IMG/VR virus record: IMGVR_UViG_3300009008_000050
Span: 1-52,950 of that record
Origin: a virus
Taxonomy: Duplodnaviria > Caudoviricetes
Reading direction: 5' to 3' (one strand)
DNA length: 52,950 bases
The first letter of the stretch is position 1, and each line of letters begins with the position of its first letter. A model generated the notes under the pieces. It did not search any database, was not told where the DNA came from, and saw only the letters and a program-made list of their open reading frames with translations. The translations under genes were made by a program, and so were the position numbers. This document shows positions 3,321-50,990 of this stretch, piece by piece.

Positions 3321-6300
3321 ATGAATAACAGCCTATCAAAAGACACCGTCAACAAAATGCTTGATAAAATCGACTCTGTGTACGTACACAAAATGGGTAC
3401 AGAACTAGAAAAAATAGGGAACCCGCTAGGCATTTGGATAGGCGATCAATACCAATTCGATAAAAAAATTGCTGAAGATTATATCTCAATGTTAAATTTA
3501 GTTCGAGGCTATATAGAAAATAATTTTAATGTAGAGGGTGAAACTCGAGATTTAATCATCGAGGATTTTAAATTAGACATCCCAAAAGACTATCCGGACT
3601 ACAAAGGGCAGATACAGGCCAAGCATATGAACGCCACATGGGGCATTCCGATCAAGGTGAAATTCGCACTTAAAGATAAGGCTGGTAAGTCTTTAGACAA
3701 GTCGGGATGGAAGACAATTCTCAACATTCCCCTCCTCACAGGCAGAGGCACATACATAGTCGACGGCCAAGAATACGCCATACGCCGCCAGCTTCGCCTC
3801 CTCCCTGGTGTATATACGGCTAAGACAGCCGAGGGTGTGGGTACGTTTATTAACACGAGTACTAGACAGAATATCAAGATGAGTTTCTCTCCAGACACTT
3901 TAAAGTTTGAGACGAACATTGGTAATCGTAAATTTTCGTTATATCCCGTGTTGTCGGCGCTAGGCGTGCCTGACGATGTAATGCGGAAGACGTGGGGAGA
4001 GAAAGTCTTCTCTGCTAATGCCGAGCGTGGTGCGCATCTCCTTGAGAGTACGGTTGACAGATTGTATAAGACGATGTATGCTTATGGTGAGCCTACGACT
4101 AGTTACCCAGATAAGGTACAGTTAATCCTCGACGCCTTCGAACAGAGTGGTTTAGATGAGTGGTCGACGAAGACTACGCTTGGCAAGCCGTACGATGGTG
4201 TAACTCCTGGGATGTTCATTGACACGACGAAGAAGATGCTTGGGGTGTCTAATGGTACGCTGAAGAGCGACAGGCGTGATGCGCTGTACTTTAGGTCGCT
4301 GTATGGCATTGACGATATGGTTGGGTTTGCTTTAAATAAGTATCAGCAGAAGCTTGACAAAAAAATTCGCTTTAGGCTAGACAATCTTGAGCGTGACGAT
4401 ATAAATTACATTGTATCGCGGCCCATTGCTATGGTTAACAAGGCTGTACTACAGCGGTTTAACCAACACGACCTTGCCTTCTTACCCATACAGGCGAATC
4501 CACTAGATGACTTTAATACGCTTTCCGAAGTTACTTTAATGGGAGAGGGTGGTATTGGGTCTGAGCATTCTATCCCAATCTCATCTAGAGCGCTTGACGA
4601 CTCTAACGTGGGAATGCTCGGGCCTCTTCAAACCCCTGCGAGTTCGAGGGTTGGTGCCAATACACATCTTACTTTAGGTGCGGACAAAGACGGCCCTGAC
4701 ATCATGGGAATGGTTGCCCCAATAGATTCACACGAGATATACCACGCTTCTGCTAGAGAAATGTATGACTTACACATTGCATTACCCGGGGAGTTTAAAA
4801 AAGTTCCAAGCGGGTGGAAGGCTAATAAGTCAAAGGTTCTCGCTGTATATAAGGGTAAGATTGGCAAAGTCCCTGCGGGTAAGATTAAGTACGTCATACC
4901 TAACCATTCGAATATGTTCACATTGTCGAGTAATACTATTCCTTTTTTGAATCACGACGCCCCGACGCGAATGAGCATGGGGACTTCACAGATGGCACAC
5001 TTGGTTAAGCTGAAGAATCCACAGCGCTCGCTTGTACAGAATATAATAGATTACGATGGCAAGAAGCCTATTACGGCCGAGGAGTCGTATTATAAAAAAA
5101 TGAACATACGCTCGCCGTTGCGTGGAGTGGTACAGCGCGTCGAGGCTGACAACATCGTTATAAAGGGGACGAAGGATGGTAAGTTGCACAAGGTTGCTTA
5201 CTATAACAACTTCCCCCTGAATACTACACGAATGATGAATACGACACCTATAGTGAAGAAGGGCGACCGCATACGTGAGGGTGATGTTATCGCGGAGAAC
5301 GGCTTTAGTGATCGTGGTCAGTTAGCAACGGGGCTTAACCTTCACATTGCGTATATGCCGTGGAAGGGGCTTAACTTTCAAGACGGGCTCGTTATATCAG
5401 ACACGGCGGCGAAGAATTTTACATCGTTACACACGTATCAAGAAGAGTATTCGAAGCACCCGAAGGATGTATATAACAAGTCGAAGTTTGTCGCCCATTA
5501 CCCTAACCTATACACTAACAGCCAGCTAAGCAAAATGGATGCCGACGGTATTATTAAAGAGGGTATGCAGATTAATAAAGGCGATCCCCTGGCGTTGAAA
5601 ATAAGCCCTCGCAAGCTTACAGAAGACGATATTCTAAGGGGGCAGATAAGCACGGTATTCAGATCGCCGATGGCTAGAGACGAGAAGACGTGGGAGCATG
5701 AGAATCTCGGCACGGTACATAAGGTAGTCAAGGGGCGAGACTTTATTAAGGTGTACGTTAAGACAGAAGAGATGCTGAGACGGGCTGATAAGCTAAGTGG
5801 ACGTCATGGTCAGAAGGGTGTCGTTGTAGCGGTGCTACCGGACGACGAGATGCCTCGTACCCAAAATGGGGACATTATAGACATTATACAAAATCCCGCC
5901 GCTGTACCTGCTCGAATGAATCTCGGGCAGATACTGGAAACCTCCGCTGGTAAACTCGCCCACCACACTGGCAAGGTGTATAAGGTAGACAACTTCAGAG
6001 ATAACATTACTCCCGAAATCTTATCCAAGCAGCTTAAAGACGCTGGCTTATCTGATCAGGATATGCTATACGACGCCGAGGGTAACGAGATTGGCTCCGT
6101 GTTTACGGGTAGACAGCATTTCTTTAAACTACGTCAACAGGCGGAGAAATACTTTAAGGCGCGTAACCAGAACGACCCCTACGACATTATATCACATAGG
6201 CCGATTAAGGGGCCGAAGATGGGGCCGCTGGGCTTCTACGCAATGCTAGCGCATGGGGCAACTAAGAACCTTAAGGAATTCGCGGGGTTTAAGAGTGAGC

Positions 6301-9300
6301 ATAATGACGACTGGTGGAGGGCTTACGAGACAGGCGCCGCCCTTCCAAGGCCTCAGACAACTTTCGCATTTGATAAACTACAGACATTCTTAAAAGGCGC
6401 CGGCATCAACGTGCGCCAAGAGAAGGACTCTTTAAGGTTACTCCCACTTACAGACAACGATGTAGACAATTTGTCGAGCGGAGAGGTACAGGATCCTTCA
6501 CGGGCGGTTAAAATAGGCGACCCCAACAGGAAGGATTTCCTGAAGCCAATCCCTGGCGGTCTATACGACCAGAAGCTTTTCGGTGGTTTAATGGGAGAGA
6601 AGTGGGGGCACATGAATCTTGCCGAGCCTATCCCTAACCCAATTTTCGAGAGGCCCATTCAAACCCTCTTAGATCTCACGCAGGGTCAATACACTCGTAT
6701 TCTAGACGGCAGGGATGGTGTACTCAAGGGAGAAATCGTCGAGATGACCCCAGAAACTCGTCCTAAGGCCATAACGGGCGGTCCGGCTATAGGAGAGTTA
6801 CTTTCGAAGATAAAGGTCACCAGCGCGCTTAAAGAGCAGGTTGACATTTCTAAGCATACCCGTGGCGACAAGCGTGATAAGGCTGTTAGAAAAATAGGCT
6901 ACCTCAATGGACTCAGGCTCGCTGGGATGAAGCCACAGGATTACATCATCTCTAAGATTCCCGTAATGCCTCCACAGTTCCGTCCGGTATACATGACCGA
7001 ACGTGGAGACATGAGGGTGTCGGACCTTACTGCGCATTATCATGACCTTGGCCGCGTTAACAACCAGATGAAAGATATGCGAGGCTTGCCTACCGAGGTG
7101 ACGGCAAATCTACGCGACGATCTTTATGATACCGTTAAAGCCTTGCAGGGAATTGGCGACCCCAACAATTACGGTCGCGCCAGGGGTGCGGCTGGTATTC
7201 TTAAGTTCATGAAGGGCAAAATACCAGCCAAGGGCCATTTTCAAGATAAGATATTCAGCAAGCGCCAGTCTATAGGTGGGCGTGCCGTGATCATGGTAGA
7301 CCCCGAACTTTCAGTAGACGACGTTGGTGTACCCGAAGAGATGGCGTGGTCGATATTCAAGCCTTTCATAATGAGAAGACTTACTACTGCTGGTATTAAG
7401 CCACTTGACGCAGACAAGATGATAGAGACGAGACACCCGCGGGCTTCTGACGCATTAGACGCAGAGATGGATTATCGGCCCGTAATATTGTCAAGAGACC
7501 CCAAGTTGCACAAGTTTAACTACCTTGCCTTCAATGGGCATCGCATTAAAGACGATGCTCTTCATATCCCGCCTCTTATTACCAAGGGGTTTAATGCGGA
7601 CTTCGATGGCGACGCAATGTCAGTCAACGTTCCTATAATGCCCGACGCGGTTCAAGAGGCGAAGTCAAGGATGCTTGCTAGTCAGAATCTCATCAAGTAC
7701 GGCAAGGATACAATCATAATGGCGCCCGAGAACGAGGCTATCGCTGGTTTATACGCGGGAACGGTAATTAAAGACGACAAGGGAATCGCGTACGGCTCGC
7801 CAGGGGAAGCATTAAGCGCATTTCATCGCGGAGATATAAAACTCACTGATGGTATTTTCGTTGCCAATAAGAAGACTTCGCCTGGCCGCGTAATGCTAAA
7901 CGAACTCTTGCCCGCTGATCTGAGAGACCATTCAAAGCGCTGGGGGAATAGTGATATCCGTGACATGCTTAACTTTGTTGCGCGAAACAACTCTAACGAA
8001 TATGTGCCAATCGTGCAGGGGATAAAAGATCTCGGTGATTTTATGGGGAACAAACTTGCTCTTTCGTTCACACTTAAAGATTTCTTCTCGATGGATAATA
8101 AAGATCTTAGCAGTATAAGTGCGAAAGCAGATAAGTTGGTGGCCATCAGTAATCGCGGCGAGGGTGACTGGACGGGCGACACTTCCTTTATGCCTGCGGA
8201 CTTCGATGCTAAGCTTGACGTAAAACTCAAAGCACACGCAAAGGACTCTACCCTTGGTATGCTTGCGGAGTCTGGCGCGAAGGGTGGCTGGGGAAATATA
8301 AAGCAAATGATATACTCACCCGTATTGATGGCAGACGTTGAGGGTGGCATAATACCTCATGTGATTAAACGTGGCTTCGCACACGGTATGGATCTTGGTG
8401 ATTACTGGACGGCAGCTAAGGGCTCGCGTGCTTCTATATTCGCATCACAGCTTGGTGTACAGGACCCTGGCTTCTTCACGAAGCAACTCCTTAGGGCTAC
8501 GCTTGGTGGCACAATTGCACCTGGTGATTACAACTCTGGGAAAGGTGTAGACTATCCCGTCGATCACCCTACGGTGCTAAACCGCTACCTTGCTAAGAAT
8601 CTCAGAGACAAAAACGGGCATCTCTTGGCCGAGGCTAACGATCTCGTTACGCAAGAGCTTGTAGAAGCCGCTAAGAAGCGTGGGGTTGAGGCAATGACCG
8701 TAAGATCGCCTCTCACATCAGTCGCCTCTCAGGGAATGTATGCGAAGGATTTCGGTAGGCTCCCCGATGGGCAGAAACCCAGAGTGGGTATGGATGCCGG
8801 AGTTATTGCAGCGCATACCCTTACAGAGCCTGCGACTCAGCTTGCTCTGAGATCGTTTCATAGCGCAGGTGCAGTGGGGCAGAATAAGAATGTCAAGGGG
8901 CTCTACTCAATCTGGCCGCTTCTCAATGGCAGGCCACCGACGGGAGCGAAGGCAGTAATGGCGACTAAGCCGGGTACGATTGAAAAGATCCACGGGCTCA
9001 AGACTGGTGGTAGCGATATCACAATGGACGACGGCACCGTATACAAGGCGACTCCGGGGCTTAAACTACACGTCAAGAGTGGTGACACCGTAACCAAAGG
9101 TCAAGCCCTTCAGGATGGATTTATGGATCCCAAGGAAGTCTTACAGTATTTAGGCATGCCCGCATTACAGCAATATCTCGTTGATCAGACTGAGGATAAT
9201 TACGGAAAAAACGCACCCGATCGTAGATATCTAGAAACACTAGTTGCATCTTTGACGAAATACAGTAAAGTAACAGATGTGGGCGAATCATCAGGATTGT

Positions 9301-9587
9301 TGCCTGGGGATATCTTACCAACAGCGCAACTTGAACAGATGAATGCTAATATGAAAGAAGAGCAGGCAAGAATAAAATCACAGCCAATCTTTACGGGGAT
9401 GGATATGTTTACCCCCAAGGTTGAGCAGGACTGGGCAGTTAAAATGATGGGGCGTGATATGATAGGCCAGCTTAGAGAATCCGCAGCAACGGGAGCTCAG
9501 AGTTTTCTTCGCGGGCCGAAACCCGTTTTGCCATTTATCGCAGGCGTTGACTTCGGTAGTCGGATAGACGATTTAGGAGTTTACTAA
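3321..9587 (+). CDS. rpoBC: Phage-encoded fused beta-beta' DNA-directed RNA polymerase (probably virion-packaged)
   Basis: Beta motifs IPFLNHD, AYMPWKGLNFQD, DKLSGRHGQKG and PARMNLGQILE, then beta' motifs PVMPPQFRP, catalytic NADFDGD (7593-7613), SGAKG and trigger loop EPATQLALRSFH, all in one 2088-aa ORF. Confidence 0.96.
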   Translation: MNNSLSKDTVNKMLDKIDSVYVHKMGTELEKIGNPLGIWIGDQYQFDKKIAEDYISMLNLVRGYIENNFNVEGETRDLIIEDFKLDIPKDYPDYKGQIQAKHMNATWGIPIKVKFALKDKAGKSLDKSGWKTILNIPLLTGRGTYIVDGQEYAIRRQLRLLPGVYTAKTAEGVGTFINTSTRQNIKMSFSPDTLKFETNIGNRKFSLYPVLSALGVPDDVMRKTWGEKVFSANAERGAHLLESTVDRLYKTMYAYGEPTTSYPDKVQLILDAFEQSGLDEWSTKTTLGKPYDGVTPGMFIDTTKKMLGVSNGTLKSDRRDALYFRSLYGIDDMVGFALNKYQQKLDKKIRFRLDNLERDDINYIVSRPIAMVNKAVLQRFNQHDLAFLPIQANPLDDFNTLSEVTLMGEGGIGSEHSIPISSRALDDSNVGMLGPLQTPASSRVGANTHLTLGADKDGPDIMGMVAPIDSHEIYHASAREMYDLHIALPGEFKKVPSGWKANKSKVLAVYKGKIGKVPAGKIKYVIPNHSNMFTLSSNTIPFLNHDAPTRMSMGTSQMAHLVKLKNPQRSLVQNIIDYDGKKPITAEESYYKKMNIRSPLRGVVQRVEADNIVIKGTKDGKLHKVAYYNNFPLNTTRMMNTTPIVKKGDRIREGDVIAENGFSDRGQLATGLNLHIAYMPWKGLNFQDGLVISDTAAKNFTSLHTYQEEYSKHPKDVYNKSKFVAHYPNLYTNSQLSKMDADGIIKEGMQINKGDPLALKISPRKLTEDDILRGQISTVFRSPMARDEKTWEHENLGTVHKVVKGRDFIKVYVKTEEMLRRADKLSGRHGQKGVVVAVLPDDEMPRTQNGDIIDIIQNPAAVPARMNLGQILETSAGKLAHHTGKVYKVDNFRDNITPEILSKQLKDAGLSDQDMLYDAEGNEIGSVFTGRQHFFKLRQQAEKYFKARNQNDPYDIISHRPIKGPKMGPLGFYAMLAHGATKNLKEFAGFKSEHNDDWWRAYETGAALPRPQTTFAFDKLQTFLKGAGINVRQEKDSLRLLPLTDNDVDNLSSGEVQDPSRAVKIGDPNRKDFLKPIPGGLYDQKLFGGLMGEKWGHMNLAEPIPNPIFERPIQTLLDLTQGQYTRILDGRDGVLKGEIVEMTPETRPKAITGGPAIGELLSKIKVTSALKEQVDISKHTRGDKRDKAVRKIGYLNGLRLAGMKPQDYIISKIPVMPPQFRPVYMTERGDMRVSDLTAHYHDLGRVNNQMKDMRGLPTEVTANLRDDLYDTVKALQGIGDPNNYGRARGAAGILKFMKGKIPAKGHFQDKIFSKRQSIGGRAVIMVDPELSVDDVGVPEEMAWSIFKPFIMRRLTTAGIKPLDADKMIETRHPRASDALDAEMDYRPVILSRDPKLHKFNYLAFNGHRIKDDALHIPPLITKGFNADFDGDAMSVNVPIMPDAVQEAKSRMLASQNLIKYGKDTIIMAPENEAIAGLYAGTVIKDDKGIAYGSPGEALSAFHRGDIKLTDGIFVANKKTSPGRVMLNELLPADLRDHSKRWGNSDIRDMLNFVARNNSNEYVPIVQGIKDLGDFMGNKLALSFTLKDFFSMDNKDLSSISAKADKLVAISNRGEGDWTGDTSFMPADFDAKLDVKLKAHAKDSTLGMLAESGAKGGWGNIKQMIYSPVLMADVEGGIIPHVIKRGFAHGMDLGDYWTAAKGSRASIFASQLGVQDPGFFTKQLLRATLGGTIAPGDYNSGKGVDYPVDHPTVLNRYLAKNLRDKNGHLLAEANDLVTQELVEAAKKRGVEAMTVRSPLTSVASQGMYAKDFGRLPDGQKPRVGMDAGVIAAHTLTEPATQLALRSFHSAGAVGQNKNVKGLYSIWPLLNGRPPTGAKAVMATKPGTIEKIHGLKTGGSDITMDDGTVYKATPGLKLHVKSGDTVTKGQALQDGFMDPKEVLQYLGMPALQQYLVDQTEDNYGKNAPDRRYLETLVASLTKYSKVTDVGESSGLLPGDILPTAQLEQMNANMKEEQARIKSQPIFTGMDMFTPKVEQDWAVKMMGRDMIGQLRESAATGAQSFLRGPKPVLPFIAGVDFGSRIDDLGVY

Positions 9588-10027
9588 TGACAAAAACGGC
9601 GGCAATACATAATCTTGCACGAGAGGTCGTTAGGCGAGAGATGCATAAGTGTGCAAATACAAATTGGAACAAATGGCCAATCGGTCGCTGGGGTTATTTA
9701 GATTATTTAGATGACCCTACCTTTGATAATGCCGTGCGCGGCGGGTCAAGCCTTGGTGCGCCGATAGGTATCCTTGGGGGTGCAGTCGGAGGGACTGTGG
9801 CTGCCGGCCCGGCAGCGGGAGCTGCTCTCGCTCCGGTGTGGGGCGGCATAGGGGGATTGGTAGGCGGGGTTCTTGGTATGCTTGGGTACCACATAGGTGA
9901 TTGGCTTGCACCGAGCGAAGAAGACTATTATTCTGACGCATATAAAGATTTTCTTAACGAGGGCCCAGACGGGTCTTCGTATAGTTTAAAAAGCAGTGAT
10001 TTAGGCGCCCCAAGGGCGAGGAACTAA
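9587..10027 (+). CDS. Leader-family protein with a glycine-zipper membrane segment
   Basis: N-terminus MTKTAA...VVRREMHKCA; run of GxxxG motifs (GGAVGG...GGIGGLVGGVLG); coupled to the RNAP stop. Confidence 0.75.
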   Translation: MTKTAAIHNLAREVVRREMHKCANTNWNKWPIGRWGYLDYLDDPTFDNAVRGGSSLGAPIGILGGAVGGTVAAGPAAGAALAPVWGGIGGLVGGVLGMLGYHIGDWLAPSEEDYYSDAYKDFLNEGPDGSSYSLKSSDLGAPRARN

Positions 10028-10041
10028 AGAAGGAGAATAGC

Positions 10042-10281
10042 TTGACAAAAAAAGAATTAATAAAACTTGCCGCGGCTCAAGTAGTCAAAAGAGAGCTTGC
10101 AAAAAGCGCCGGAATAAGAGATGCCGTAGCAAGACGCAATGAAATATACGCTAATATGGGCATAATAGAAGCGCCCGCGGATAGCGCCGCGACAGACTCT
10201 CTCTGGGTAGAGCCGGGAGAAAATGCTGACTCTAGCCCATGGAGTTGGTTCACGGACCTTTTTAAAGGGTGGGGGTCATAG
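10042..10281 (+). CDS. Leader-family small protein
   Basis: TTG start with AAGGAG RBS; KKELIKLAAAQVVKRELAKSA leader. Confidence 0.8.
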   Translation: MTKKELIKLAAAQVVKRELAKSAGIRDAVARRNEIYANMGIIEAPADSAATDSLWVEPGENADSSPWSWFTDLFKGWGS

Positions 10282-10286
10282 AGACA

Positions 10287-10700
10287 ATGAATAAAGAAAT
10301 TATAAAATTAGCCGCATCTATTATTGTGAGAAGAGATATGAATAAGACCTCGGGAATTTTTGATATCGATCTTGACTCTTTGGGCCTGTCTGAAGCGTGG
10401 CCCCAAATTAGCGAATTTTGGGAAAGAGCCCAGGGCTGGGAAGGTGGAGAGGAGCTTACGGATATCCCAGCTTCTTCTGACAATATAATTCCAGCAAATT
10501 TATCATGGATGTACAATAGGGTAAATGACGCTTACGGGGACTCTTCTGTTTTTGCTGACAGTGTAGATAAATATATACCAAACTTTTCTGAGGATTACCA
10601 GGACATAAATCTGTGGGACGCTGTTTCTCTTTTAAGAAATAAAGACGTACTAGGCAATTTGTTCTCGCTTGGGGCGCTTGGTGGTTCGGCCAGTGACTAA
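10287..10700 (+). CDS. Leader-family acidic protein
   Basis: MNKEIIKLAASIIVRRDMNKTS leader; start placed at ATG 10287 by alignment with the paralogous leaders. Confidence 0.8.
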   Translation: MNKEIIKLAASIIVRRDMNKTSGIFDIDLDSLGLSEAWPQISEFWERAQGWEGGEELTDIPASSDNIIPANLSWMYNRVNDAYGDSSVFADSVDKYIPNFSEDYQDINLWDAVSLLRNKDVLGNLFSLGALGGSASD

Positions 10701-10729
10701 ATATAGAGAAGTATATTAAGGAGAATAAA

Positions 10730-10840
10730 GTGAACAAACAAGCGGCTTTCGTCGGGTCTTATAGGGCGGGACAGCATAGCGGTAGCCCGGTAGATGCCCC
10801 TTCACAGACCCCTGCTCTCCCAAAGATGCCTTGGCGTTAA
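10730..10840 (+). CDS. 36-aa microprotein (MNKQAAFVGSYRAG...KMPWR), not in the ORF track
   Basis: AAGGAG RBS, GTG start, KQA motif, stop 3 nt before the next ATG. Confidence 0.6.
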   Translation: MNKQAAFVGSYRAGQHSGSPVDAPSQTPALPKMPWR

Positions 10841-10843
10841 TCT

Positions 10844-11647
10844 ATGAACAAAGAGTTTGCCAAACTTGCCGCAGCCGCGATTGTCAGAAACGAACTCTCT
10901 AAATCGAGCGGTATCTTTGACTGGTTTACGAACAACCCAAGTGATTATTATAGCCCTGCCTATGTTGAAAGCTTATTAAATGCAAATGTAGAATCTATGG
11001 ATGGCCTCGGATTACACGCGGGCGAATGGGCTAATCATTATGCAGGATTAGAACAGAAACGTGAAGACCTCCGACCGCGGAGTTATTCTGAGCTGGTCTT
11101 TGGGGAAGGAAACGAAGACGAGTATTCCCTTGGTAGCCCTCATGGCCATAGGCCTCGCCTCCTTATTGAATATGCTTGGGACGAAGAGACCCAGAGCGAT
11201 ATGCCTATATATGGATCATCAGAACACAGGGGGCAGGATTACAGGGCGGGCGTCGGTACTCAATTGTACGCACCCTTTGGTGGGGAGATTACTTCTAGCC
11301 ACCACGATACTGGTGGTGGGGGTAACTTAAGTTTCCTAAGCCCCTTTTATCCTGATGGCAGCCCTAGTGATTTGGCATTTAGCGCAATGCACTTAGCCGA
11401 GCCTACTGGTTATGAAAGAGGGGACGTTGTTGAACCTAGCGACCCTTGGGGCCTAGTCGGGTCAACAGGAAGGTCTAGCGGCCCGCATCTACATGCCGGC
11501 GCTAAGGTTGGCGATGCTTCGGTACATCCAGCTTTTTTAACAAGAAAACTAGATAGACTTTTTGACAAATACGAAGAAATGGGAAGGTATTCCCCATTTA
11601 CAGAAGAAGATTTCGTCAGCGATGACGATTATCTATACTTAAACTAG
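10844..11647 (+). CDS. Leader-family protein with an M23 metallopeptidase (peptidoglycan hydrolase) domain
   Basis: HRGQD (HxxxD), AMHL, GLVGSTGRSSGPHLH (HxH); leader MNKEFAKLAAAAIVRNELSKSS. Confidence 0.88.
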   Translation: MNKEFAKLAAAAIVRNELSKSSGIFDWFTNNPSDYYSPAYVESLLNANVESMDGLGLHAGEWANHYAGLEQKREDLRPRSYSELVFGEGNEDEYSLGSPHGHRPRLLIEYAWDEETQSDMPIYGSSEHRGQDYRAGVGTQLYAPFGGEITSSHHDTGGGGNLSFLSPFYPDGSPSDLAFSAMHLAEPTGYERGDVVEPSDPWGLVGSTGRSSGPHLHAGAKVGDASVHPAFLTRKLDRLFDKYEEMGRYSPFTEEDFVSDDDYLYLN

Positions 11648-11655
11648 GAGATATT

Positions 11656-12300
11656 ATGGGAAGCGTAAAAAGATTTATAAAACAGGCACAGCAACAGATA
11701 CAGCTCCCTCCCCCTCAATATCTAGAATACCCGATGCCTACTCGCCCCCGCGATCGGTGGGAGGAAGAAGCCCCCCCCTTGTCACCGGAAGAGAAGGAAG
11801 AGTCTCCTTATCAAGACCCATGGGTAGAACCCGAGAAGACAAGTTCGTTTACAACAACCCCAGGGCTAGATGTTTTTCTCCCTATATTAAGCGAGATGAT
11901 GGATAGGGCTAACGTTCCAACGATAGGAAACACTAACGTTTACGAGCCCGAAGCGATAAAGTCTATATATAACCTTCTTGCTCCTGGTATTTTAGAAGAC
12001 GAAGGGGTGCAACGAGATTGGATTAATCTCTACAACGCGTACGCCCCCGGGGAAGAAGAGCCTACCTTTGCGGATTCTCTTGAGAACATCTGGCCGGATC
12101 TCAATGTGTTTGATTATTATGGAATAAGCCCGGAGAGTAGATATGCTATTAACGAATATGTGGGCGACCAATTTCAAGCGATTCCTCCCGGCGCGCCAGA
12201 AGAAGCCGTAATAGAAATAGACGACGATTCGGACACGGGGGATGCGGTTATAGAAAAAGGTGGATCTTTCCTTAAACAATTACGTCGGCTAAAGAAGTAA
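11656..12300 (+). CDS. Acidic Pro/Glu-rich putative internal virion protein
   Basis: AGGAG RBS; starts MGSVKRFIKQA, like the 13858 ORF. Confidence 0.75.
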   Translation: MGSVKRFIKQAQQQIQLPPPQYLEYPMPTRPRDRWEEEAPPLSPEEKEESPYQDPWVEPEKTSSFTTTPGLDVFLPILSEMMDRANVPTIGNTNVYEPEAIKSIYNLLAPGILEDEGVQRDWINLYNAYAPGEEEPTFADSLENIWPDLNVFDYYGISPESRYAINEYVGDQFQAIPPGAPEEAVIEIDDDSDTGDAVIEKGGSFLKQLRRLKK

Positions 12301-12301
12301 T

Positions 12302-12329
12302 TTGCATATTATTTGCAAACGCGTATTAT
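12302..12329 (+). promoter_or_regulatory. Sigma70-like promoter
   Basis: TTGCAT-N16-TATTAT in an intergenic gap. Confidence 0.45.
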
Positions 12330-12358
12330 ATAGTTAGGAAAACCATTTAAGGAGAATT

Positions 12359-13075
12359 ATGGAAAGAAAAGAAATAATAAAGCTTGCGGCAGCCTTGGTT
12401 ATAAAAGCCGCTCAATCTGCGGCCGACGATCCCGATTCGGGCGCGGGGACGTATGAAGCGGATATAGCTCAATTAGAAGAAGAAATCATTCAGATAGGAA
12501 ATAGTCAACAGGAAGATGCTAACCTCGCTGCGACCCGAAGGGCTTTAGAGAATGCGACCATACTTCAAGAAGAAATAGATGCCGAGAAAGCAAGAATAGC
12601 CGCGGAAGAGGCTGCACGGCAGGCGTGGGAGGATGAAACTTTTTCTTCCCCAGAATACTACGCTCTTCAGCAAGAAGCCCTAGACCATACGCGTAATACC
12701 ATGAACCAAGAGTACGCAGTCCCTAGCGTTATGGATATTATAAACCAAAACGTCAAGGGGGGTGATTGGGACACACAGAGTGGATTGGAATCCATTGGTG
12801 AATGGGCAGGAACGGTAGGCTTACCAGTAGCAGCAGCGGCACTAATAGCAACGTTGCCAGGATTAGGTGGAACGTATACCCTAGGCAGCCACTTAGGGGC
12901 AATGCCAGCACTTAGTAGTATAAACGCGGGTCTCCTCGGCGCCGGCGGAAATCTCACCGGAATCGGTAAGGGTATAGGTTGGTTATGGGGCGAAGGTGGC
13001 CCTGACCTGTGGCATGGTAATTATATAGACTACGCCGACATACAAGGTTGGCTTGACAAAGAAGATTTATTATAA
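12359..13075 (+). CDS. Leader-family protein with a coiled coil and hydrophobic Gly/Ala-rich segments
   Basis: AAGGAG RBS; MERKEIIKLAAALVIKAA. Confidence 0.8.
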   Translation: MERKEIIKLAAALVIKAAQSAADDPDSGAGTYEADIAQLEEEIIQIGNSQQEDANLAATRRALENATILQEEIDAEKARIAAEEAARQAWEDETFSSPEYYALQQEALDHTRNTMNQEYAVPSVMDIINQNVKGGDWDTQSGLESIGEWAGTVGLPVAAAALIATLPGLGGTYTLGSHLGAMPALSSINAGLLGAGGNLTGIGKGIGWLWGEGGPDLWHGNYIDYADIQGWLDKEDLL

Positions 13076-13092
13076 TAACGAAAGGACACGAA

Positions 13093-13824
13093 ATGACAAG
13101 AAAAGGATTCATAAAACTCGCAGCCGCACAAATAGTGAGGAACGAGATGTGGAAGCGTGCGCAGGTAGACCCAAGAACCCAGCCCCCCGTGGAAAATAGG
13201 ACAGCTCATCCCTATTTTATTCCAGACCCGGGTGGCCTCGGCTGGGAGGGATCCGAGGAGCAAAACGCGAGAATCGGTGCAAAGAAAGAGGAGCTTGATG
13301 CAATCGCAGCAGGCGAAGCCGCTGCAGCTAGAGACGCGCGGGGTATTGTTGAAGAGGCAAGAGGTCACATGGCAAGACGTGCTAGAGGTAAAGCCGAAGA
13401 ACAGCGCAACTCTCTTGCTGATCTAATCGCTGGGAAAGGTAACGCCCCTCTCGGCATGCCGTATCCGGAGCTTGTCCAAAGATTCGAGAGCGCCCAGCCT
13501 ATGGCCCCCATTTACGCCGCTGCCGGCCGTGGAGACATATCTCACCCCGGTACGAGCTTTAGTAATAGCCTTAACACCGTATCTCGCGATCTAATAGAAA
13601 ACATCTACGGCTCTAATTTTTATGACCAAGGCTTCTTAGAAACCTTTGGCGAAACGGCTACCATTCCTATAAGCGGGCTTGCGAAGTTGATAGGCACGGC
13701 TCCCTATCAGATAAGCGATGCCGCTTCCAATGTTTGGGACGCTACTAAAGAATTCGGTTCCAATGCTTGGGACGCTACTAAAGAATTCGGTTCCAATGCT
13801 TGGGACGCTATAACTGGTTATTAG
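13093..13824 (+). CDS. Leader-family protein with C-terminal 11-aa Trp repeats
   Basis: MTRKGFIKLAAAQIVRNEMWKRA leader; SNAWDATKEFG repeats. Confidence 0.8.
   Translation: MTRKGFIKLAAAQIVRNEMWKRAQVDPRTQPPVENRTAHPYFIPDPGGLGWEGSEEQNARIGAKKEELDAIAAGEAAAARDARGIVEEARGHMARRARGKAEEQRNSLADLIAGKGNAPLGMPYPELVQRFESAQPMAPIYAAAGRGDISHPGTSFSNSLNTVSRDLIENIYGSNFYDQGFLETFGETATIPISGLAKLIGTAPYQISDAASNVWDATKEFGSNAWDATKEFGSNAWDAITGY
13725..13810 (+). repeat. 33-bp coding tandem repeat, about 2.6 copies
   Basis: Unit TTCCAATGYTTGGGACGCTACTAAAGAATTCGG at 13725 and 13758, partial at 13791. Confidence 0.92.
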
Positions 13825-13857: not shown

Positions 13858-14532
13858 ATGGGTAGTGTTAAAAGAATGATTGGCAACGGCATGAGAAAGC
13901 AAGCTTCACAGCAGATGCAAAAACGTGCCTATGCTAACGAAATGTACAAAAGAGCCTATGCTAACGAAATGTACAAAAGAGCATATGCTAACGAAATGTA
14001 CAAAAGAGCATATGCTAACGAAATGTACAAAAGAGCATATGTAGGAGAAATGCAGAAGCGTGCACATCTCAACGGACTCTACAAACGCGCATATGTGAAT
14101 AAAATGCAGAAGCTGGGTATGCCGGCTTCTATAATGAGGCTTCTTGGGAAACAAGCTCCGAAGGCAAAGGTTCTCCCAAAGATCCTTAAGTCTCTTGCTG
14201 CGGCTGCAGGCATCGGTGGGCTTGGTTATGCTGGATACAAAAACCAAGACGAAATATCCGACGTCCTCTCTGGGTTATTTGGTGACTCGCCACCTAGGAA
14301 AAAACCCTTTGTGCCAGATCCAGATAGACCCCCCCACCATATATCAGGAAACCCTGAGGGCGTGCGTCCAGTCAGACCAGGCGGCCCGCCTCCCTTCAGC
14401 GCTATGCCTCCGATCGTTGGAGAAGAATCAGACATAGAGGGAATACGCGCACAAATTGTGAAGTACTTAGAGAATAATAACGAGAGTCTCACGCAGGACG
14501 AAATTGATGCTCTGAAAGAGTACGGCTTTTAA
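13858..14532 (+). CDS. Protein with tandem AYANEMYKR repeats, a hydrophobic segment and a Pro-rich region
   Basis: AAAGGA RBS; in-frame repeats; SLAAAAGIGGLGYAGY segment. Confidence 0.8.
   Translation: MGSVKRMIGNGMRKQASQQMQKRAYANEMYKRAYANEMYKRAYANEMYKRAYANEMYKRAYVGEMQKRAHLNGLYKRAYVNKMQKLGMPASIMRLLGKQAPKAKVLPKILKSLAAAAGIGGLGYAGYKNQDEISDVLSGLFGDSPPRKKPFVPDPDRPPHHISGNPEGVRPVRPGGPPPFSAMPPIVGEESDIEGIRAQIVKYLENNNESLTQDEIDALKEYGF
13927..14115 (+). repeat. 27-bp coding tandem repeat (4 near-perfect plus 3 degenerate copies)
   Basis: GCMTATGCTAACGAAATGTACAAAAGA at 13927, 13954, 13981 and 14008. Confidence 0.95.
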
Positions 14533-18400: not shown

Positions 18401-18473
18401 AACATATGGTATACAGACTGTAGAAACCAATAACACCCCGGATACTTATAATGACACGAATGGCACTACATGA
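15453..18473 (+). CDS. Probable tail tape measure protein
   Basis: 1006 aa, Ala/Gly-rich and helical with a glycine-zipper segment; lies between the frameshifted chaperone and baseplate genes. Confidence 0.65.
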   Translation: MNGQAYAGYATYDNLSQIGQASTNQLNQMSVPGPVIGATGYNMAGSAMATYSSFQIQTDAINRQLQQQVGQEYADYQRRSYNFDLMGIAAMPILGAIGGAFAGGPGAVAGYAAGAGLMMALPSMAAEFGFLQLPESVTIEEQTKALMSEAVYGAAWSTMDPFTTRGLRGTSVLQAQDAAEELYSSMRSQGFQGAELSRLMPALQSIGAFSGTDNIDEMVAVAEQYISSIRDFISRTNAMMEDVVALVGVGGMFGLEGAGIENYLQSISRGAGASNMAPADFAEDAAMSAARLVGLGDDLTGVFEQYALTGAYTRGAARLSNEETWGSPFTPQEMAKQIAGLGIGRFTGSPSGMAQATAMSVSPGALDDYLSTGYVGSEAYNDYWDLSPTERYKAKYNVGEFLANNSSSLYLGDVSRIMNLAPDFGGDLEAGGAYLAERLNAEYNMGMTPVQGRNMLETYDFQRSISGQAQTWEYMTLVQPYEEKHQTALSEMTERIYRGLVGTQYITNKEVGWGTNNPWYDDEKGLKVIEGSRNFRFLSDDELSKMDANLIGLGNTESISYLVGREEGRAVDLVGLMYGAGEFVPNEQRMLTAVMNNSRLYRKTDNGDVLVEGVRAQIIDGEIRWIVSGDGAFNAGATSSVYKEGDDVTNYVTGATGARFGFRGDDLTDALAAITVGSYTSEESWNYANRYGVAGTLDEYIDLNFELADFERTNASGARNALEPLLLAQATQITISSSDWDFGWVDLRGRSSLDIARGIAYRKFGTTNISSLSEGERNWVASFVTQKYNRTFDLETATDSYTDFMGDEDIYSSLSTDQQKERMSNMSATDQKTLWDYFHGIRSDLPLHLRGVVSAMGLTNESGAQVLESAAHYQYRTALTAAETLIREELKLNNFNIEDAASGGIEGTALANYSGDNKELLGIIDYLRGGITAQERPGFISSVGHTPVLDIAASGSPELTDRTIAENTMNYSKEMVDILNHIKTYGIQTVETNNTPDTYNDTNGTT

Positions 18474-38342: not shown

Positions 38343-38343
38343 T

Positions 38344-39054: not shown

Positions 39055-39055
39055 A

Positions 39056-39649: not shown

Positions 39650-39655
39650 GATGAA

Positions 39656-43976: not shown

Positions 43977-43994
43977 GGGGGGGAAGGAGATACA

Positions 43995-44339: not shown

Positions 44340-45508
44340 AAGGCATACGCTTTTTAAAGGCTAACCCCAAAGTCATAATGAAATCGCAATTCGATCTCGT
44401 AGGGGAACATCTTTGGTTTCCCGACTTCCTTAAAAGCGCGCTAGTCAATAACATAGCGCACAAACACCCCGATCAATTAGTGGATTTAGAAGTAATTGAG
44501 CCCACTGTCCCTCGCTATAATGGCGAAGAATTACACGGAAAGCATCTTGGCGTAGCTCGCACGGGTGGCGCCGGGGACATTATAATGATAGGCGCATCCC
44601 TGCAAAAGCTTAAGAAACTCTACCCAACCTGCGAGATCACCTTCATGACAGACGCTAAATACGCTCAGGTAGCCGAAGCTGTTACCGCCGTCGATGGCGT
44701 TGCCACATATCCCGTAAGAGAAGAAGTACACACTACCTTCGATTACTGGACAGACTTCGTTGGGTCGATAGAAGCGCCCTCTTGGGATGCGCGTAATATA
44801 CACGGAATTGATTTATTTGCAGGCCTAATGAGTGTTAAACTCAACGACGACGAGAAGTTACCACATCTTTCGGTACCCTTCGAGGCGCAGAAAAGAGCAG
44901 ACGCTCGTTTAAAGTCAATAGGCTGCGAAGGCAAGAATCTCATTGCTGTGCAATTCAGAGCAACTAACGTGAATCGCTGTTTTGATCAAGAAAAGATGAT
45001 TAACATAATCGCCGGACTTGCTGCTAAAACAGAAGATGCACACATTATAATCATGGGCGGAAAGCGTACCGTGATGGATAAAGACAATAATAAAACAAAA
45101 GAAAGAGATTGCCCTATAGACTTTTTCACAAACATAGGTGGAAAAAAGATGAAGCACCCTCAGATCCACAATCTAACCGGGCAGACGGACTGGCTTGAGT
45201 CAATGGCGATTCTCTCAAAATGCAAACTTGCACTTGGTCCAGACAGCAGTATAGTACATATTGCAGGGAGCATGAAAATACCCTGCTTGGGTATTTACGG
45301 TCCCTTCCCAGCCAGGATTAGGACGACGTACTACCCGGAATGCGAGACTATTGAGTCAAATTACAAATGCGCGCCATGTTTCTCACATGGATCGATGCCT
45401 TGTTCTCATATGGATCGCAAAAGAATGGTAGCCCCCTGCTGGGAGGAAATAACTGCTGATATGATAATCGATAAGGCTCAATCAATGTATACGAAAGGAC
45501 AAACATGA
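44336..45508 (+). CDS. Glycosyltransferase family 9 (heptosyltransferase-like)
   Basis: RTGGAGDII, NLTGQT, GPDSSIVHIAGSMKIPCLGIYGP, C-terminal Cys cluster. Confidence 0.88.
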   Translation: MKGIRFLKANPKVIMKSQFDLVGEHLWFPDFLKSALVNNIAHKHPDQLVDLEVIEPTVPRYNGEELHGKHLGVARTGGAGDIIMIGASLQKLKKLYPTCEITFMTDAKYAQVAEAVTAVDGVATYPVREEVHTTFDYWTDFVGSIEAPSWDARNIHGIDLFAGLMSVKLNDDEKLPHLSVPFEAQKRADARLKSIGCEGKNLIAVQFRATNVNRCFDQEKMINIIAGLAAKTEDAHIIIMGGKRTVMDKDNNKTKERDCPIDFFTNIGGKKMKHPQIHNLTGQTDWLESMAILSKCKLALGPDSSIVHIAGSMKIPCLGIYGPFPARIRTTYYPECETIESNYKCAPCFSHGSMPCSHMDRKRMVAPCWEEITADMIIDKAQSMYTKGQT

Positions 45509-46629
45509 ACGTAAGAGGAATTATCCTGGATGCGTATGACATGCTTAGTGCGAAGCAGATCTCGTCGGAAGACATGCAAAAAGTGGCGCTGGACCACAAA
45601 GAAAGTGTACACACACAAGAGGACATCTACCGCCAAATAGATCGTGACTTCGGTCTTATTCTTGTCTTTAAAAACGGCGACAAATTGAGGAAGTTCCCTC
45701 TTAATTCAAAAACAAACGTGACTTTCAGCATGAATGCTTTCAAGAAGAATAAGCATAAGCTGCCCGATGCTGCGAAAAGAATGACAGCCGTACGCATAGT
45801 TGCCGCTTGTGAGCGTTATGCTATGGATTGTGATGAAGATATTAAGGCAATTGCCAAGGGCGCAATTGACGACGGTAATTATTATCATGTAAGCGAAGAT
45901 ATGATGAATATGCTTAGCGGGCTTGCTGATATAAAAGACGAGAAAAAGACAGATGACGCAACCGCGCCGAACGAGGTTAAAGAAGCCGAATGGGGCATAA
46001 ACGAGACTATTAATGGCGTCTCTGTGCGCAAGTTTCCTCTTCGTACCCAAGAACAGGTAGAGAAGGCGCTAGGAAGATTCCCGAAGACAGCTTCTAGGCT
46101 TCTTGCTAAATATGCATTCAACCTTGCTGATAATATAAAGAAGAAGGCTGAGATACTTAACGTAGTCGTCCCCAAGGATTCGCTAGTTAATCAGTATACG
46201 AGCGATGCATATTCTCCGCTTTTCAAAATGGCTATGCGGGCTAGGATTGCTTATTCAAATGCTAAGAAGAGTAGCCCGGGCCCGTATATGTCATTGCTTG
46301 CAAAGACATCTAATCTCGCCCCAAGAGATGCTGCTGTAATTCTCGAAGGCATCGATATGGACCAGGCGTTTCATCACCGCTATGGCACATCTTTCCCAAG
46401 CGCAGTTAATAGCGTAATGGACAAGACGGCTAAAGAATTTAGCACGGGCGATGCTATGGTTGACATGAGCCGCCTGAGAGAAGCCATCGTCAATCATAGA
46501 CATGTATTCGAAGAGCATTTTGAGAAAGATCTGCTTGACGGCCTCGAAAGAAATACCGACACCGTATTTAAATCCCTCCCCGCGCCGGTAAGGCAGCTCA
46601 TTGGTAGGATTCTTAATACGCTGTCATGA
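45505..46629 (+). CDS. Hypothetical head-region protein with two RKFPL repeat domains
   Basis: LRKFPLNSKTNV...F and VRKFPLRTQEQV...F; several K-x-A motifs. Confidence 0.7.
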   Translation: MNVRGIILDAYDMLSAKQISSEDMQKVALDHKESVHTQEDIYRQIDRDFGLILVFKNGDKLRKFPLNSKTNVTFSMNAFKKNKHKLPDAAKRMTAVRIVAACERYAMDCDEDIKAIAKGAIDDGNYYHVSEDMMNMLSGLADIKDEKKTDDATAPNEVKEAEWGINETINGVSVRKFPLRTQEQVEKALGRFPKTASRLLAKYAFNLADNIKKKAEILNVVVPKDSLVNQYTSDAYSPLFKMAMRARIAYSNAKKSSPGPYMSLLAKTSNLAPRDAAVILEGIDMDQAFHHRYGTSFPSAVNSVMDKTAKEFSTGDAMVDMSRLREAIVNHRHVFEEHFEKDLLDGLERNTDTVFKSLPAPVRQLIGRILNTLS

Positions 46630-47249
46630 AAAGTATTTTAACCCTATTAGTTAATACCGAAAGCACGCCTGCACAGCTCCTCGCTGCAATGAATGAAGCG
46701 TTTGGCGAGGGTTGGCTTAAGTGGGAGCCGGCAACGATTAGGGCTGAATTAGAAGATATTGGCTTTGATTTTAACACGCTTCCCAGGGGTTCGTGGGACA
46801 AACTAATGGCAACCAAGGCTGCCTTTATGAACAACGCCCCCTGGAAGGACTGGACGGCTTTTCTCACCTTCGCACAGGCGATGAATAATTACCAGGTAGA
46901 CTTTAATGTCGCCAGGGTATGCTCGCCGGCGGAGGCTGCGTGGACAGTTGAGTGCTTAAAGCTAATTCGCCCCGACGAGAAGTTTTCTCGCGAGGTGCAG
47001 GCGATGATAGGGTCAATTTTTCTTAGCAATGGTATTGTAGTTCCCCCGGCGGGATTAGAGCTCGTTAAAGATGAGATGAAAGAAATGCAAGACAAGACAA
47101 TGGCTATGGATGAATTTACAAAAATAGCTGAAGAGCGTTATACTCTACATAGAAGTCAGAGCACCGCGCCCGAGGGCGACTCTGCATTAGATATACACAC
47201 AACGAAACTCTTAGCAATAGATGAATATATAAGGAGCAAGAATGGCTGA
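46626..47249 (+). CDS. Hypothetical protein
   Basis: Overlap-coupled to both neighbours. Confidence 0.75.
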   Translation: MKSILTLLVNTESTPAQLLAAMNEAFGEGWLKWEPATIRAELEDIGFDFNTLPRGSWDKLMATKAAFMNNAPWKDWTAFLTFAQAMNNYQVDFNVARVCSPAEAAWTVECLKLIRPDEKFSREVQAMIGSIFLSNGIVVPPAGLELVKDEMKEMQDKTMAMDEFTKIAEERYTLHRSQSTAPEGDSALDIHTTKLLAIDEYIRSKNG

Positions 47250-49305
47250 TGGCAGTAATTTTGAGACTAGTACCAATTATAATCTAATCGCATCCGGGGA
47301 CAATCCCTTTCTTGACATTAGCCAACTTTACTTCCCTCGCAATATAAAAGACGCCTTCCCGCTTGCGCGTACTATATTCTATACCAATGGTTTAGTACGG
47401 CAGGCTATAAAAAAATTAGCAGAGTATTCAATTACCGACCTTGAGTTTATCGCCCCCGAAGAAGGCTCTGGCATGCGCAAGGAAGAAATACAAAATGTAT
47501 ACAAGCGTATATTCTCGAAGCAATTAGATATAAAGAAATTCCTTATCTCTGTCGGACTCGATTACTTCGTATACGGCAACGCCTTCGTGTCGATCTACTT
47601 CCCATTTAAAAGAATGCTTACCTGCAAGAGTTGTGAAGAACAGATGCCGCTTTCGCTAAACGAGATTGCAGACTGGGAATACACTGATAAGGGTTATCGT
47701 GGCACCTGCCCGCGTTGTAAGAAAAAGGTAGAGTTTACCGCACAGGATAAAACTATACAGCAAGAAGACAGAATGCGTCTTATTCGCTGGAATCCCGAGA
47801 ACATCGACATAGAATATTATCCCTTTAGCGGCGAGAGAATCTATACATACGATCCCCCTGAAGAGATTCGCGCCAAGATACTAGGTGGCGACAAAGAGGC
47901 TATACTTCGCACGCCTACGCTTATTCTCAATGTAATCAAAGACGATAAAGTAGTAAAACTCAACCCACACGATCTCTTTCACTTCGTTGCGGAAAGCCCG
48001 ACTGATGAACAACAGGCCTGGGGTAAGGCTTTAATTATATGTGCGTTTAAAAACATTTTCTACGCATCCGTACTGCGTAAGGGCGCTGAGGCAATTGCGC
48101 TCGATCACATTATCCCCCTTCGAGTGCTTTTCCCACAGATCACGGGCTCTGAGGGCTTCCACTCGACTAGCGTAAGGCTTAGCAAAATAGAAAGCAAGCT
48201 GCGCTATGAGTTCACCGAGTGGAGGAAAGATAAAAACCGTGTTATCATTTCTCCTTTCCCCATGGGTATGCAATTCCTGGGCGGCCAAGGGCGTGGTCTT
48301 CTCCCCACGCCAGAGATTCAACAGGCGACTGAAGAAATCTTCCTTTCTCTAGGCTTACCCCAGGGATTGCTCATGGGTAGCGCACCGTGGGCTGCCAATA
48401 GCATCGCGATGCGTATTGTAGAGAATGCCTTCCTTACATATCGCAATCAATTACAGACAATTCTCGACTTCGTAAAAGACAGACTTAGAGACTACCTAGA
48501 CCTCCCTGACTGTACCGTACGGATGAAAGAATTTAAAATGATGGACGACGTACAATATAAGCAGCTTATGATGGGCCTTGCACAGGGTAGATTGATTTCT
48601 AAGCGTAGATTGCTTGAGATGTTTAACATCGATTACGAAGAGGAAATGGGCATTGTGCGCGACGAAATGAAAGATGAATCCATCTTCCAGGCAGAAGCAC
48701 AGGGCGAGATGATTAAAATCCAAGCCGGTATGCAGGATGAAATACAGGCATCACAGTCAGCGTCTATGATGGAACAGCAGAGCTCGCAAATGGAAGAGGT
48801 GGCTGAAAACTTCCTCTCAATTACGCAAAAATTCATTGACTCAGGCTGGCCTATGGATCAAGCTATTGGTATTGTTAATAACGTTATGCAACAGCAGATG
48901 TATATGCAAATGCAGCAGGCCGAGAAAGCCAAGGCAGACCAGGCAAGAGCCCTCTTTATGCAGGATCGTATGGCGTCTACCGGATGGAGCCTTGCAAGGG
49001 CACAGAGGCAGCTTAAGATGTTCGATGTTATGGATCAGTTTAACCCCGCGCCGACCCCGCAACAGTTCCAGGACGAAGGGCAATATGTTAATAGCCTCGT
49101 AAGTTATCTAATGCAACTCCCTGGCGACCAACGAGAAGCTCAGCTAAATAGTATTAAGAATAAAGACATCGCCTTCTTCGAACGCCTCGTAAATTACCTC
49201 AATGGTATGGGGATGAATGTAGGCGCACAGGATGGCGGAGGAACGAATAATAATATTAATCCATTACCGCAGGATAATGCACCCAGACGACAAGGATATA
49301 AATGA
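47242..49305 (+). CDS. Probable portal protein with a zinc-ribbon insertion and Gln/Met-rich C-terminus
   Basis: NGLVRQAIKKLAEY, LDYFVYGNAFV and LFHF...WG motifs typical of portals; CKSC...CPRC. Confidence 0.65.
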   Translation: MADGSNFETSTNYNLIASGDNPFLDISQLYFPRNIKDAFPLARTIFYTNGLVRQAIKKLAEYSITDLEFIAPEEGSGMRKEEIQNVYKRIFSKQLDIKKFLISVGLDYFVYGNAFVSIYFPFKRMLTCKSCEEQMPLSLNEIADWEYTDKGYRGTCPRCKKKVEFTAQDKTIQQEDRMRLIRWNPENIDIEYYPFSGERIYTYDPPEEIRAKILGGDKEAILRTPTLILNVIKDDKVVKLNPHDLFHFVAESPTDEQQAWGKALIICAFKNIFYASVLRKGAEAIALDHIIPLRVLFPQITGSEGFHSTSVRLSKIESKLRYEFTEWRKDKNRVIISPFPMGMQFLGGQGRGLLPTPEIQQATEEIFLSLGLPQGLLMGSAPWAANSIAMRIVENAFLTYRNQLQTILDFVKDRLRDYLDLPDCTVRMKEFKMMDDVQYKQLMMGLAQGRLISKRRLLEMFNIDYEEEMGIVRDEMKDESIFQAEAQGEMIKIQAGMQDEIQASQSASMMEQQSSQMEEVAENFLSITQKFIDSGWPMDQAIGIVNNVMQQQMYMQMQQAEKAKADQARALFMQDRMASTGWSLARAQRQLKMFDVMDQFNPAPTPQQFQDEGQYVNSLVSYLMQLPGDQREAQLNSIKNKDIAFFERLVNYLNGMGMNVGAQDGGGTNNNINPLPQDNAPRRQGYK

Positions 49306-50897: not shown

Positions 50898-50933
50898 AAC
50901 ATTCCTTTCTAAAAATGACGTTTTTACGTTATA

Positions 50934-50961
50934 ATTATATTCCGGGACATGTTTTTTGCAA
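50934..50961 (-). promoter_or_regulatory. Sigma70-like promoter of the amidase gene, with -35 inside a 24-bp palindrome
   Basis: Minus strand TTGCAA-N16-TATAAT. Confidence 0.55.
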
Positions 50962-50990
50962 AAAACATGTTTTGGTGAGCAGCGGAGTTT

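Follow-up and report, generated by a model that had tools for sequence, protein, structure and literature searches.

Given that six neighbouring genes of a tailed phage begin with the same 23 residues and continue as dissimilar proteins, we questioned whether this shared N-terminal leader serves as an address and, if so, where it sends its cargos. The genes lie in IMG/VR record IMGVR_UViG_3300009008_000050 (Duplodnaviria; Caudoviricetes), and the window analysed here is that entire record (52,950 b, linear, 38% complete by CheckV estimate). They stand just downstream of an RNA polymerase gene, and in all six the leader starts at residue 1. An initial annotation had read it as a portable capsid-targeting propeptide. 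The portable part of that reading stood, as the leader is conserved, N-terminal and modular; the capsid-targeting part is plausible, the support for it being indirect. We favour, at a probability of roughly 0.55, a two-part propeptide resembling the capsid targeting sequence (CTS) of phage T4, which would load virion-internal (ejection) proteins into the head.

One leader on unrelated proteins

The six N-termini were present as first quoted, on the following genes (lengths in amino acids, aa):

9587..10027, + strand: g9587, 146 aa; divergent leader (residues 1-23) ending EMHKCA; Gly/Ala-rich hydrophobic cargo
10042..10281, + strand: g10042, 79 aa, TTG start; leader ending ELAKSA; short acidic cargo
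10287..10700, + strand: g10287, 137 aa; leader ending DMNKTS; acidic cargo that matched no family
10844..11647, + strand: g10844, 267 aa; leader ending ELSKSS; M23 metallopeptidase domain
12359..13075, + strand: g12359, 238 aa; leader core IIKLAAALVIK; acidic helical region and C-terminal Gly/Ala hydrophobic segment
13093..13824, + strand: g13093, 243 aa; leader ending EMWKRA; cargo without assigned function

When a profile of the six leaders was run over every frame between stop codons in the window (1448 frames, 73,388 residues), the members scored 50-62 bits and the next best frame 7.4 bits (E 0.34). Leave-one-out profiles recovered five of the six at E values from 6.7e-12 to 1.6e-3, the weakest being g12359. 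The leader of g9587 was recovered over its second half only (E 0.45, with the best non-family frames at E 0.19-0.31), and we therefore regard it as a divergent member; it resembles the leaders of a related metagenome contig, L003, described below. The leader consists of a hydrophobic core, I-K-L-A-A-A-x-I-V, flanked by charged residues, with A11 invariant and K21 more than 90% conserved in the family, and five of the six window copies end in E/D-[LM]-x-K-x-[AS].

Across a 17-member alignment, columns 1-23 had a mean pairwise identity of 0.51 (136 pairs), against 0.14 for columns 24-60 (106 pairs) and 0.18 for the columns after them (135 pairs). The fall from 0.51 to 0.14 agrees with the earlier statement that similarity largely stops after the last K-x-[A/S]; that statement does not hold for g12359, which has no such ending, nor for g10042 and g10844, which can still be aligned to residue 62 at 37% identity. 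Identical leader residues were encoded by the identical codon in only 6/14, 4/11, 7/10 and 7/14 cases, depending on the pair, such that 30-64% of them used different codons, and RNA folds of the six start regions gave no structure signal (z -1.27 to +1.09). An RNA-level explanation was dropped on this ground, and these two results together confirm the earlier view that the leader is conserved at the protein level.

Its physical character proved less distinctive than first described. The initial annotation had called the leaders basic amphipathic helices, whereas the helical hydrophobic moment of all 16 leaders examined was matched or beaten by 217-995 of 1000 shuffles, and they are thus not amphipathic. 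The cargos are acidic, as stated (pI, the isoelectric point, 4.1-4.8), but this does not set them apart from window proteins as a whole (median pI 4.9). In a scan of 21 proteins, every 19-residue stretch with a mean hydropathy of at least 1.2 began at residue 24 or later, which means that the leader lacks a core like that of Sec or Tat signal peptides.

We assessed how widely the leader occurs by searching a profile of eleven leaders against 1,835,955,588 representative proteins (E<=1e-3). Seventeen of the 18 matches started at residue 1 or 2 (the six window proteins, P0008 and ten new carriers), and the eighteenth, P0014, was an internal repeat in a 986-aa protein. This is the outcome expected of a portable leader, at the N-terminus of diverse cargos with a single internal exception, and it accords with the turnover of cargos in L003 and with the leaders that other lineages bear on unrelated enzymes (next section). 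Once the leaders were stripped, only five pairs of cargos were similar at E<=1e-2, leaving at least ten cargo types. The similar sets were g10844 with P0006; g13093 with P0019 and, weakly, P0008; P0013 with P0017; and P0009 with g11656, another gene of the cluster, where the similarity is weak (26% over 100 aa) and only a hint of leader swapping. Searched as a degenerate DNA pattern, the leader had no IMG/VR match beyond the window's own record and three matches in GTDB genomes, all of them internal chance matches in bacterial frames. The leader profile had no match in the whole genomes of two cultured relatives, Vibrio phage D181 and Salmonella phage Arash, nor in 80 portal-related loci (1.24 Mb).

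Carrier genes vary even between close relatives. In L003 (1465 b) the end of the RNA polymerase is identical to that of the window in 34 of 37 residues and the M23 gene is 64% identical, yet between these conserved flanks lie three leader open reading frames (ORFs) whose cargos match none in the window. The stop codon of the polymerase overlaps the start of the first leader gene in both, within the same TAATG (window 9584-9589, the start of g9587; L003 111-116), which suggests translational coupling of the two genes.

Among the cargos of the window, the M23 peptidase of g10844 is the best defined (Pfam Peptidase_M23, 38.5 bits against a cutoff of 28.7). Its zinc ligands are intact (HxxxD at H128, HxH at H215), and its ortholog P0006, 64% identical, retains the leader. 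It has no signal-peptide-like core and is accompanied by a separate amidase gene at 50409-51011, likely the endolysin, a combination that fits a virion-borne wall hydrolase. Gly/Ala-rich (glycine-zipper) hydrophobic segments are found in g9587 (within residues 56-99, with 18 small-xxx-small repeats), g12359 (residues 146-175) and the related carriers P0008, P0010, P0013 and P0018. A 1006-aa protein encoded after the cluster (15453-18473) also contains several such segments (residues 85-133 and 237-260) and has no leader. The cargo of g13093 is 40% identical to its ortholog P0019, and an Atlas search with it returned nothing usable; the C-terminus of this protein is encoded by a tandem repeat (33 nt x 2.6 copies, 98% matches, window 13725-13810) that yields WDATKEFGSNA. 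The ATG of g10287 sits within a longer GTG frame beginning at 10269. PHROGs scans of the cluster genes matched only the M23 domain of g10844 and, in g9587, the Gly-rich stretch, Pfam matched nothing but Peptidase_M23, and the remaining cargos had no family match in either. None of the ten new carriers of the window's lineage matched Pfam, and an AlphaFold2 (AF2) prediction of the M23 carrier from a two-sequence alignment gave no usable model (mean predicted local distance difference test score, pLDDT, 29.7).

A candidate protease site and leader dialects in related phages

The end of the leader recurs well beyond the leader itself. The motif [DE][LMI]xKx[AS] was found 17 times in window proteins against 3.1 +/- 1.6 in shuffled sequences, and 14 of the occurrences were within the cluster, of which three fell in the core of a leader and not at its terminus. 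A related form, [LMIV]xKx[AS][AGS], occurred 25 times in the 15 portal-to-capsid ORFs examined in D181 (shuffles 4.2 +/- 2.2) and 15 times in 13 ORFs of Arash (shuffles 3.4 +/- 1.8). Stretches of the type h-x-K-x-A stand at residues 21-25 of the capsid protein and residues 25-28 of the head protease in D181, Arash, locus L088 and the complete genome G002 (the D181 protease and capsid being identified by PHROGs, and the L088 capsid stretch, GKEKIA, being read by eye and lying outside the regular expression). Scaffold-like proteins of the relatives hold 7-9 copies. At the level of sequence, the terminal motif is thus common to the leader and to the capsid, protease and scaffold-like proteins of relatives. 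Because this pattern fits a capsid propeptide, protease self-processing and scaffold degradation, h-x-K-x-A is probably the cleavage site of the clade's head-maturation protease.

Within the cluster and immediately after it, two further genes share an N-terminus of their own, and one of them repeats this motif:

11656..12300, + strand: g11656, 214 aa, acidic; inside the cluster, sharing with g13858 only the MGSVKR N-terminus
13858..14532, + strand: g13858, 224 aa, basic (pI 9.7); MGSVKR N-terminus, followed by tandem copies of the motif that ends the leader

The array of g13858 contains YANEMYKRA four times together with degenerate copies, spaced about every nine residues, and five matches to E-M-x-K-R-A. 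The underlying DNA repeat is 27 nt x 4.1 copies at 13930-14041 (98% matches), in a repeat region of 13930-14095. The protein may serve the protease as a substrate with many sites, or may belong to the core or scaffold. MGSVKR and a Gln-rich stretch open both g13858 (13858-13875) and g11656 (11656-11673), which are otherwise unrelated, and MGSVKR may be a second tag; a homolog search with g11656 found only itself.

Other lineages have leaders of their own on predicted proteins of unrelated kinds, including enzymes. We gathered 80 IMG/VR loci with a 50-sequence portal alignment and defined the dialects of these lineages by regular expressions only. ORFs adjoining the polymerase or portal gene in these loci begin with leaders such as ..AFxDELxK[IV]A. 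For the expression [AG][FM]x[DENQA]E[LMIV]xKx[AGS], 1347 plus-strand ORFs gave 24 matches within their first 40 residues and two farther along (0.45 versus 0.007 per 1000 residues); on the minus strand the counts were none and three, respectively. Seven ORFs of the complete genome G003 (201,921 b) start with the AFxDELxK[IV][AG] type, none of which matched Pfam. The leader-like sequence MQAAFDDEMEKISAA also occurs in frame inside a 947-aa ORF beginning MEKAAA (L089 5534-6205; G003 132230-132904, minus strand), where it could represent a second start within the frame or a point of internal processing.

The clearest parallel is G002 (complete, 166,638 b), in which the core FWxGFEK occurs 12 times in six frames, nine of them at ORF starts. 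Here nine otherwise unrelated proteins open with MxxFWxGFEKxA; an SNF2 helicase, a thioredoxin and a NUDIX hydrolase are among them, and none of the 36 cargo pairs was similar. Four of the genes stand in a row at 82.7-84.5 kb, and leader genes of this genome are also seen in the portal-related loci:

L091 159-1992 and 7590-7913: G002 leader genes
L097 13269-15087: G002 leader genes

One G002 carrier has Gly-zipper and holin-like Pfam matches below the curated cutoffs. The leader-bearing helicase is 38% identical over 476 aa to gp217 of Arash and is an ortholog of it with an 18-residue N-terminal extension that holds the leader. As gp217 was detected in Arash virions (PMC10585845), this orthology gives the one link, an indirect one, between a leader-bearing protein and virions. 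Four such leader ORFs occur in the record behind L092.

Proposed capsid loading and the competing explanations

Under the CTS-like explanation, the last six residues of the leader, E-[LM]-x-K-x-[AS], would be the site of this clade's head-maturation protease, and the lineage-specific upstream part, K-E-x-I-K-L-A-A-A-x-I-V, would bind a component of the prohead during assembly. A tagged protein of any kind would be co-assembled into the head, the protease would then cut off the tag, and the cargos would exit with the DNA at infection. In this phage these would be the M23 cell-wall peptidase, the glycine-zipper proteins (presumed membrane-active) and the small acidic proteins, travelling with the RNA polymerase of the neighbouring gene. 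The polymerase is probably virion-borne in this clade, because its homologs in Arash, gp206 and gp216, were among the most abundant proteins in the reported virion mass spectrometry (3516 and 1210 spectra; PMC10585845).

As described in the cited reports, T4 CTS are N-terminal propeptides of 10-19 residues, with a targeting part upstream and a processing part at the end (PMC9026906, PMC3012670), and they occur on diverse, fast-changing internal proteins (PMC9026906, PMC3012670, PMC5694885). The leader resembles those of IPI-III and Alt as a short N-terminal propeptide on unrelated proteins with a quick turnover of genes, and in its two parts, targeting followed by a protease processing site, which is a prediction here. 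It differs in length (23 residues versus 10-19) and in the site, since T4 and phiKZ-type sites are reported to be cleaved after Glu (PMC5694885, PMC9026906) and the putative site here is built around Lys (h-x-K-x-A). The phage itself also differs from T4 in belonging to a separate, nearly uncultured clade with a fused beta/beta' RNA polymerase, and PHROGs and Pfam scans, which did not include direct alignment to the T4 peptide, placed no cluster gene in a T4 internal-protein family. Phages of the phiKZ/SPN3US type are described as packaging a virion RNA polymerase and many ejection proteins, as we propose here, and gp53 and gp54 of SPN3US share an identical 15-residue N-terminus on diverged proteins that its authors called CTS-like (PMC5694885). 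According to the same report, most propeptides in that group exceed 100 residues, hold several cleavage sites with an A/S/G-x-E motif and are found on paralogs (PMC5694885), whereas the tag considered here is short and its cargos are clearly non-homologous.

In the literature searched, T4 is the only phage for which capsid targeting sequences have been described, and for phiKZ-type giant phages they have been inferred. The Arash paper nowhere uses the word 'protease' (PMC10585845). A system of this kind in the present clade would be a second, unrelated one, implying that large phages in general load their capsids by means of address tags. Its new features would be the different protease motif, the lineage-specific dialects and the presence of the tag on nine unrelated proteins of one complete genome. 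It would also allow the injected proteome of an uncultured clade to be predicted from metagenomic contigs by a simple sequence rule, one that Arash and Vibrio phages D181 and D69, which are cultured, allow to be tested directly. A further gain would be new short peptides with which foreign proteins could be brought into phage heads. In encapsulins and bacterial microcompartments, a short portable peptide likewise sends diverse enzymes into a protein shell, and the shells of encapsulins and the capsids of phages belong to one fold class. No protease removes those peptides, which we liken to the leader by description and not by sequence, and they often lie at the C-terminus.

A wider form of the proposal is tentative, and we think it somewhat less likely to hold than to fail. 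It would have the whole clade (myoviruses of 140-210 kb, almost wholly uncultured) using N-terminal address tags that diversify into lineage dialects of 12-23 residues, all ending in the head-protease site h-x-K-x-A, with any gene that gains a tag being loaded into the capsid. The phages would thereby ship with their DNA an enzyme kit for the first minutes of infection (RNA polymerase partners such as the SNF2 helicase, a NUDIX hydrolase, thioredoxin, the wall peptidase and membrane-channel proteins), and g13858 would be a sacrificial multi-site component of the core or scaffold.

Several observations weigh against capsid loading. For this phage and its close kin, it is a prediction that the motif is cut, that the leader binds part of the prohead and that virions contain the cargos. 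The window (38% complete) holds no recognisable protease, scaffold or capsid gene, such that the proposed enzyme and receptor are unseen. The lack of amphipathicity means that the leader gives no structural hint of binding a surface, and g12359 bears the leader core with no K-x-[AS] ending. The N-terminal enrichment of the dialects is partly circular, because the motifs were defined after N-termini had been inspected, and one G002 leader gene lies on the opposite strand, far from the structural genes. The RNA polymerase, the likeliest packaged protein, has no leader in the window and carries the strict motif in only 1 of 36 distinct N-termini, for which reason the idea that the polymerase itself carries the tag was dropped. 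Arash gp217 is present in virion preparations (1148 spectra; PMC10585845) yet has no leader at all. The virion proteome reported for Arash comprises 116 of 272 proteins and includes ribonucleotide reductases (PMC10585845), and it may for that reason contain contaminants.

The leader might instead be a propeptide for processing only, removed by the head protease or another phage protease so as to activate or release its protein, with the upstream part serving protease recognition or cargo inactivation and no addressing to the capsid. This is unlikely in our view, although the feature best conserved across lineages is the terminal E-h-x-K-x-A motif, K21 and A11 are nearly or wholly fixed in the leader family, and the leader could keep the M23 peptidase as a zymogen. 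A bare cleavage site would not need a lineage-specific core of 16 residues held at about 51% identity against 14% in the cargos; a helicase, a NUDIX hydrolase and a thioredoxin are unlikely all to require one inhibitory peptide; and the equivalent peptide of T4 is reported to target (PMC9026906). Slightly less probable again is docking onto some other hub, be it the portal or tail, an RNA polymerase complex or an intracellular phage factory. Leader genes do adjoin the polymerase gene in the window and in five other records, many of those in the 80 loci lie just upstream of the portal gene, and a transcription complex would be a suitable place for the helicase, NUDIX and thioredoxin cargos of G002. 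Neither the M23 peptidase nor the glycine-zipper proteins fit such a complex, and the terminal motif is common to the capsid protein and the head protease.

We regard as very improbable an envelope-acting or lysis module in which the leader would bring the M23 peptidase and the small hydrophobic proteins to the membrane or mark them for export. The glycine-zipper segments of g9587, g12359 and several relatives and the sub-threshold holin-like matches of the G002 carrier would suit such a module, but no hydrophobic stretch begins before residue 24, leaders of the same kind are found on cytoplasmic-type enzymes, and the motif is one that head proteins share. We give equally little credence to tandem paralogs in decay, with the N-terminus as their slowest-evolving remnant and no addressing role. 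The alignment of g10042 with g10844 to residue 62, the SGIFD that follows the leader in both g10287 and g10844, and a weak full-length alignment of g12359 and g13093 are what such decay might leave. However, an M23 domain cannot be the paralog of a 79-aa protein or of glycine-zipper proteins, close relatives swap cargos while keeping leaders, and G002 shows the same arrangement independently, on proteins whose Pfam folds differ.

Polymerase, portal and other genes of the window

The large ORFs of the window are almost all on the plus strand. Apart from the leader cluster, three genes relate it to other phages:

3321..9587, + strand: fused beta/beta' multisubunit-type RNA polymerase, 2088 aa; Pfam RNA_pol_Rpb2_6 (3.6e-56) and Rpb1 domains 1, 2 and 5; directly upstream of the leader cluster
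45505..46629, + strand: g45505, 374 aa; clade-conserved, upstream of the portal gene; DMQKVA at residues 23-28
47242..49305, + strand: portal protein, 687 aa; sharing 29% identity with the D181 protein encoded where its portal is expected, and matching the annotated Arash portal

The portal was used as a marker to gather the clade, and 120 homologs were found; an early guess that g1396 was the portal was dropped in favour of g47242. Among cultured phages, portal matches were limited to Salmonella phage Arash, Vibrio phages D69, D148 and D181 and, very distantly, Bacillus phage G. The RNA polymerase gene follows the portal gene in 50 of the 80 loci. A blastn search of the window against phage records gave no match, and IMG/VR scans with the polymerase C-terminus, P0006 and P0008 found no loci. 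Contigs other than the window, up to 58,820 b long, encode the same proteins.

Together with g46626, g45505 forms a clade-conserved pair just upstream of the portal (window 45505-47249), with homologs in 34 and 51 of the 80 loci, respectively. Most of 31 aligned N-termini of g45505 homologs have an h-x-K-x-A-type stretch at the matching column, as judged by eye and uncounted. The AF2 model of g45505 (pLDDT 80.2) has two repeats of a beta-hairpin plus two helices, and a helical domain. Foldseek found no match to this fold in the PDB at E<=1e-3, the best VIA wide match reached Z 6.0 over 56 residues, and neither an Atlas search nor a PDB profile search identified the protein.

Some genes of the relatives are interrupted or enlarged. 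The polymerase gene of D181 (L002 8914-16896) is in pieces with homing-endonuclease genes between them, and several portal homologs 1000-1176 aa long (P0070, P0080, P0104, P0109 and P0123) contain PF14528 or PF14890, which are intein/homing-endonuclease families. Other window products recognised in PHROGs and Pfam scans were a baseplate-J protein, two sigma-70-like proteins, the amidase and a glycosyltransferase/sulfotransferase block. An island of low GC (guanine plus cytosine) content at 38000-45500 (0.33-0.35 versus about 0.46 elsewhere) codes for several glycosyltransferases, a sulfotransferase and a heptosyltransferase-like protein.

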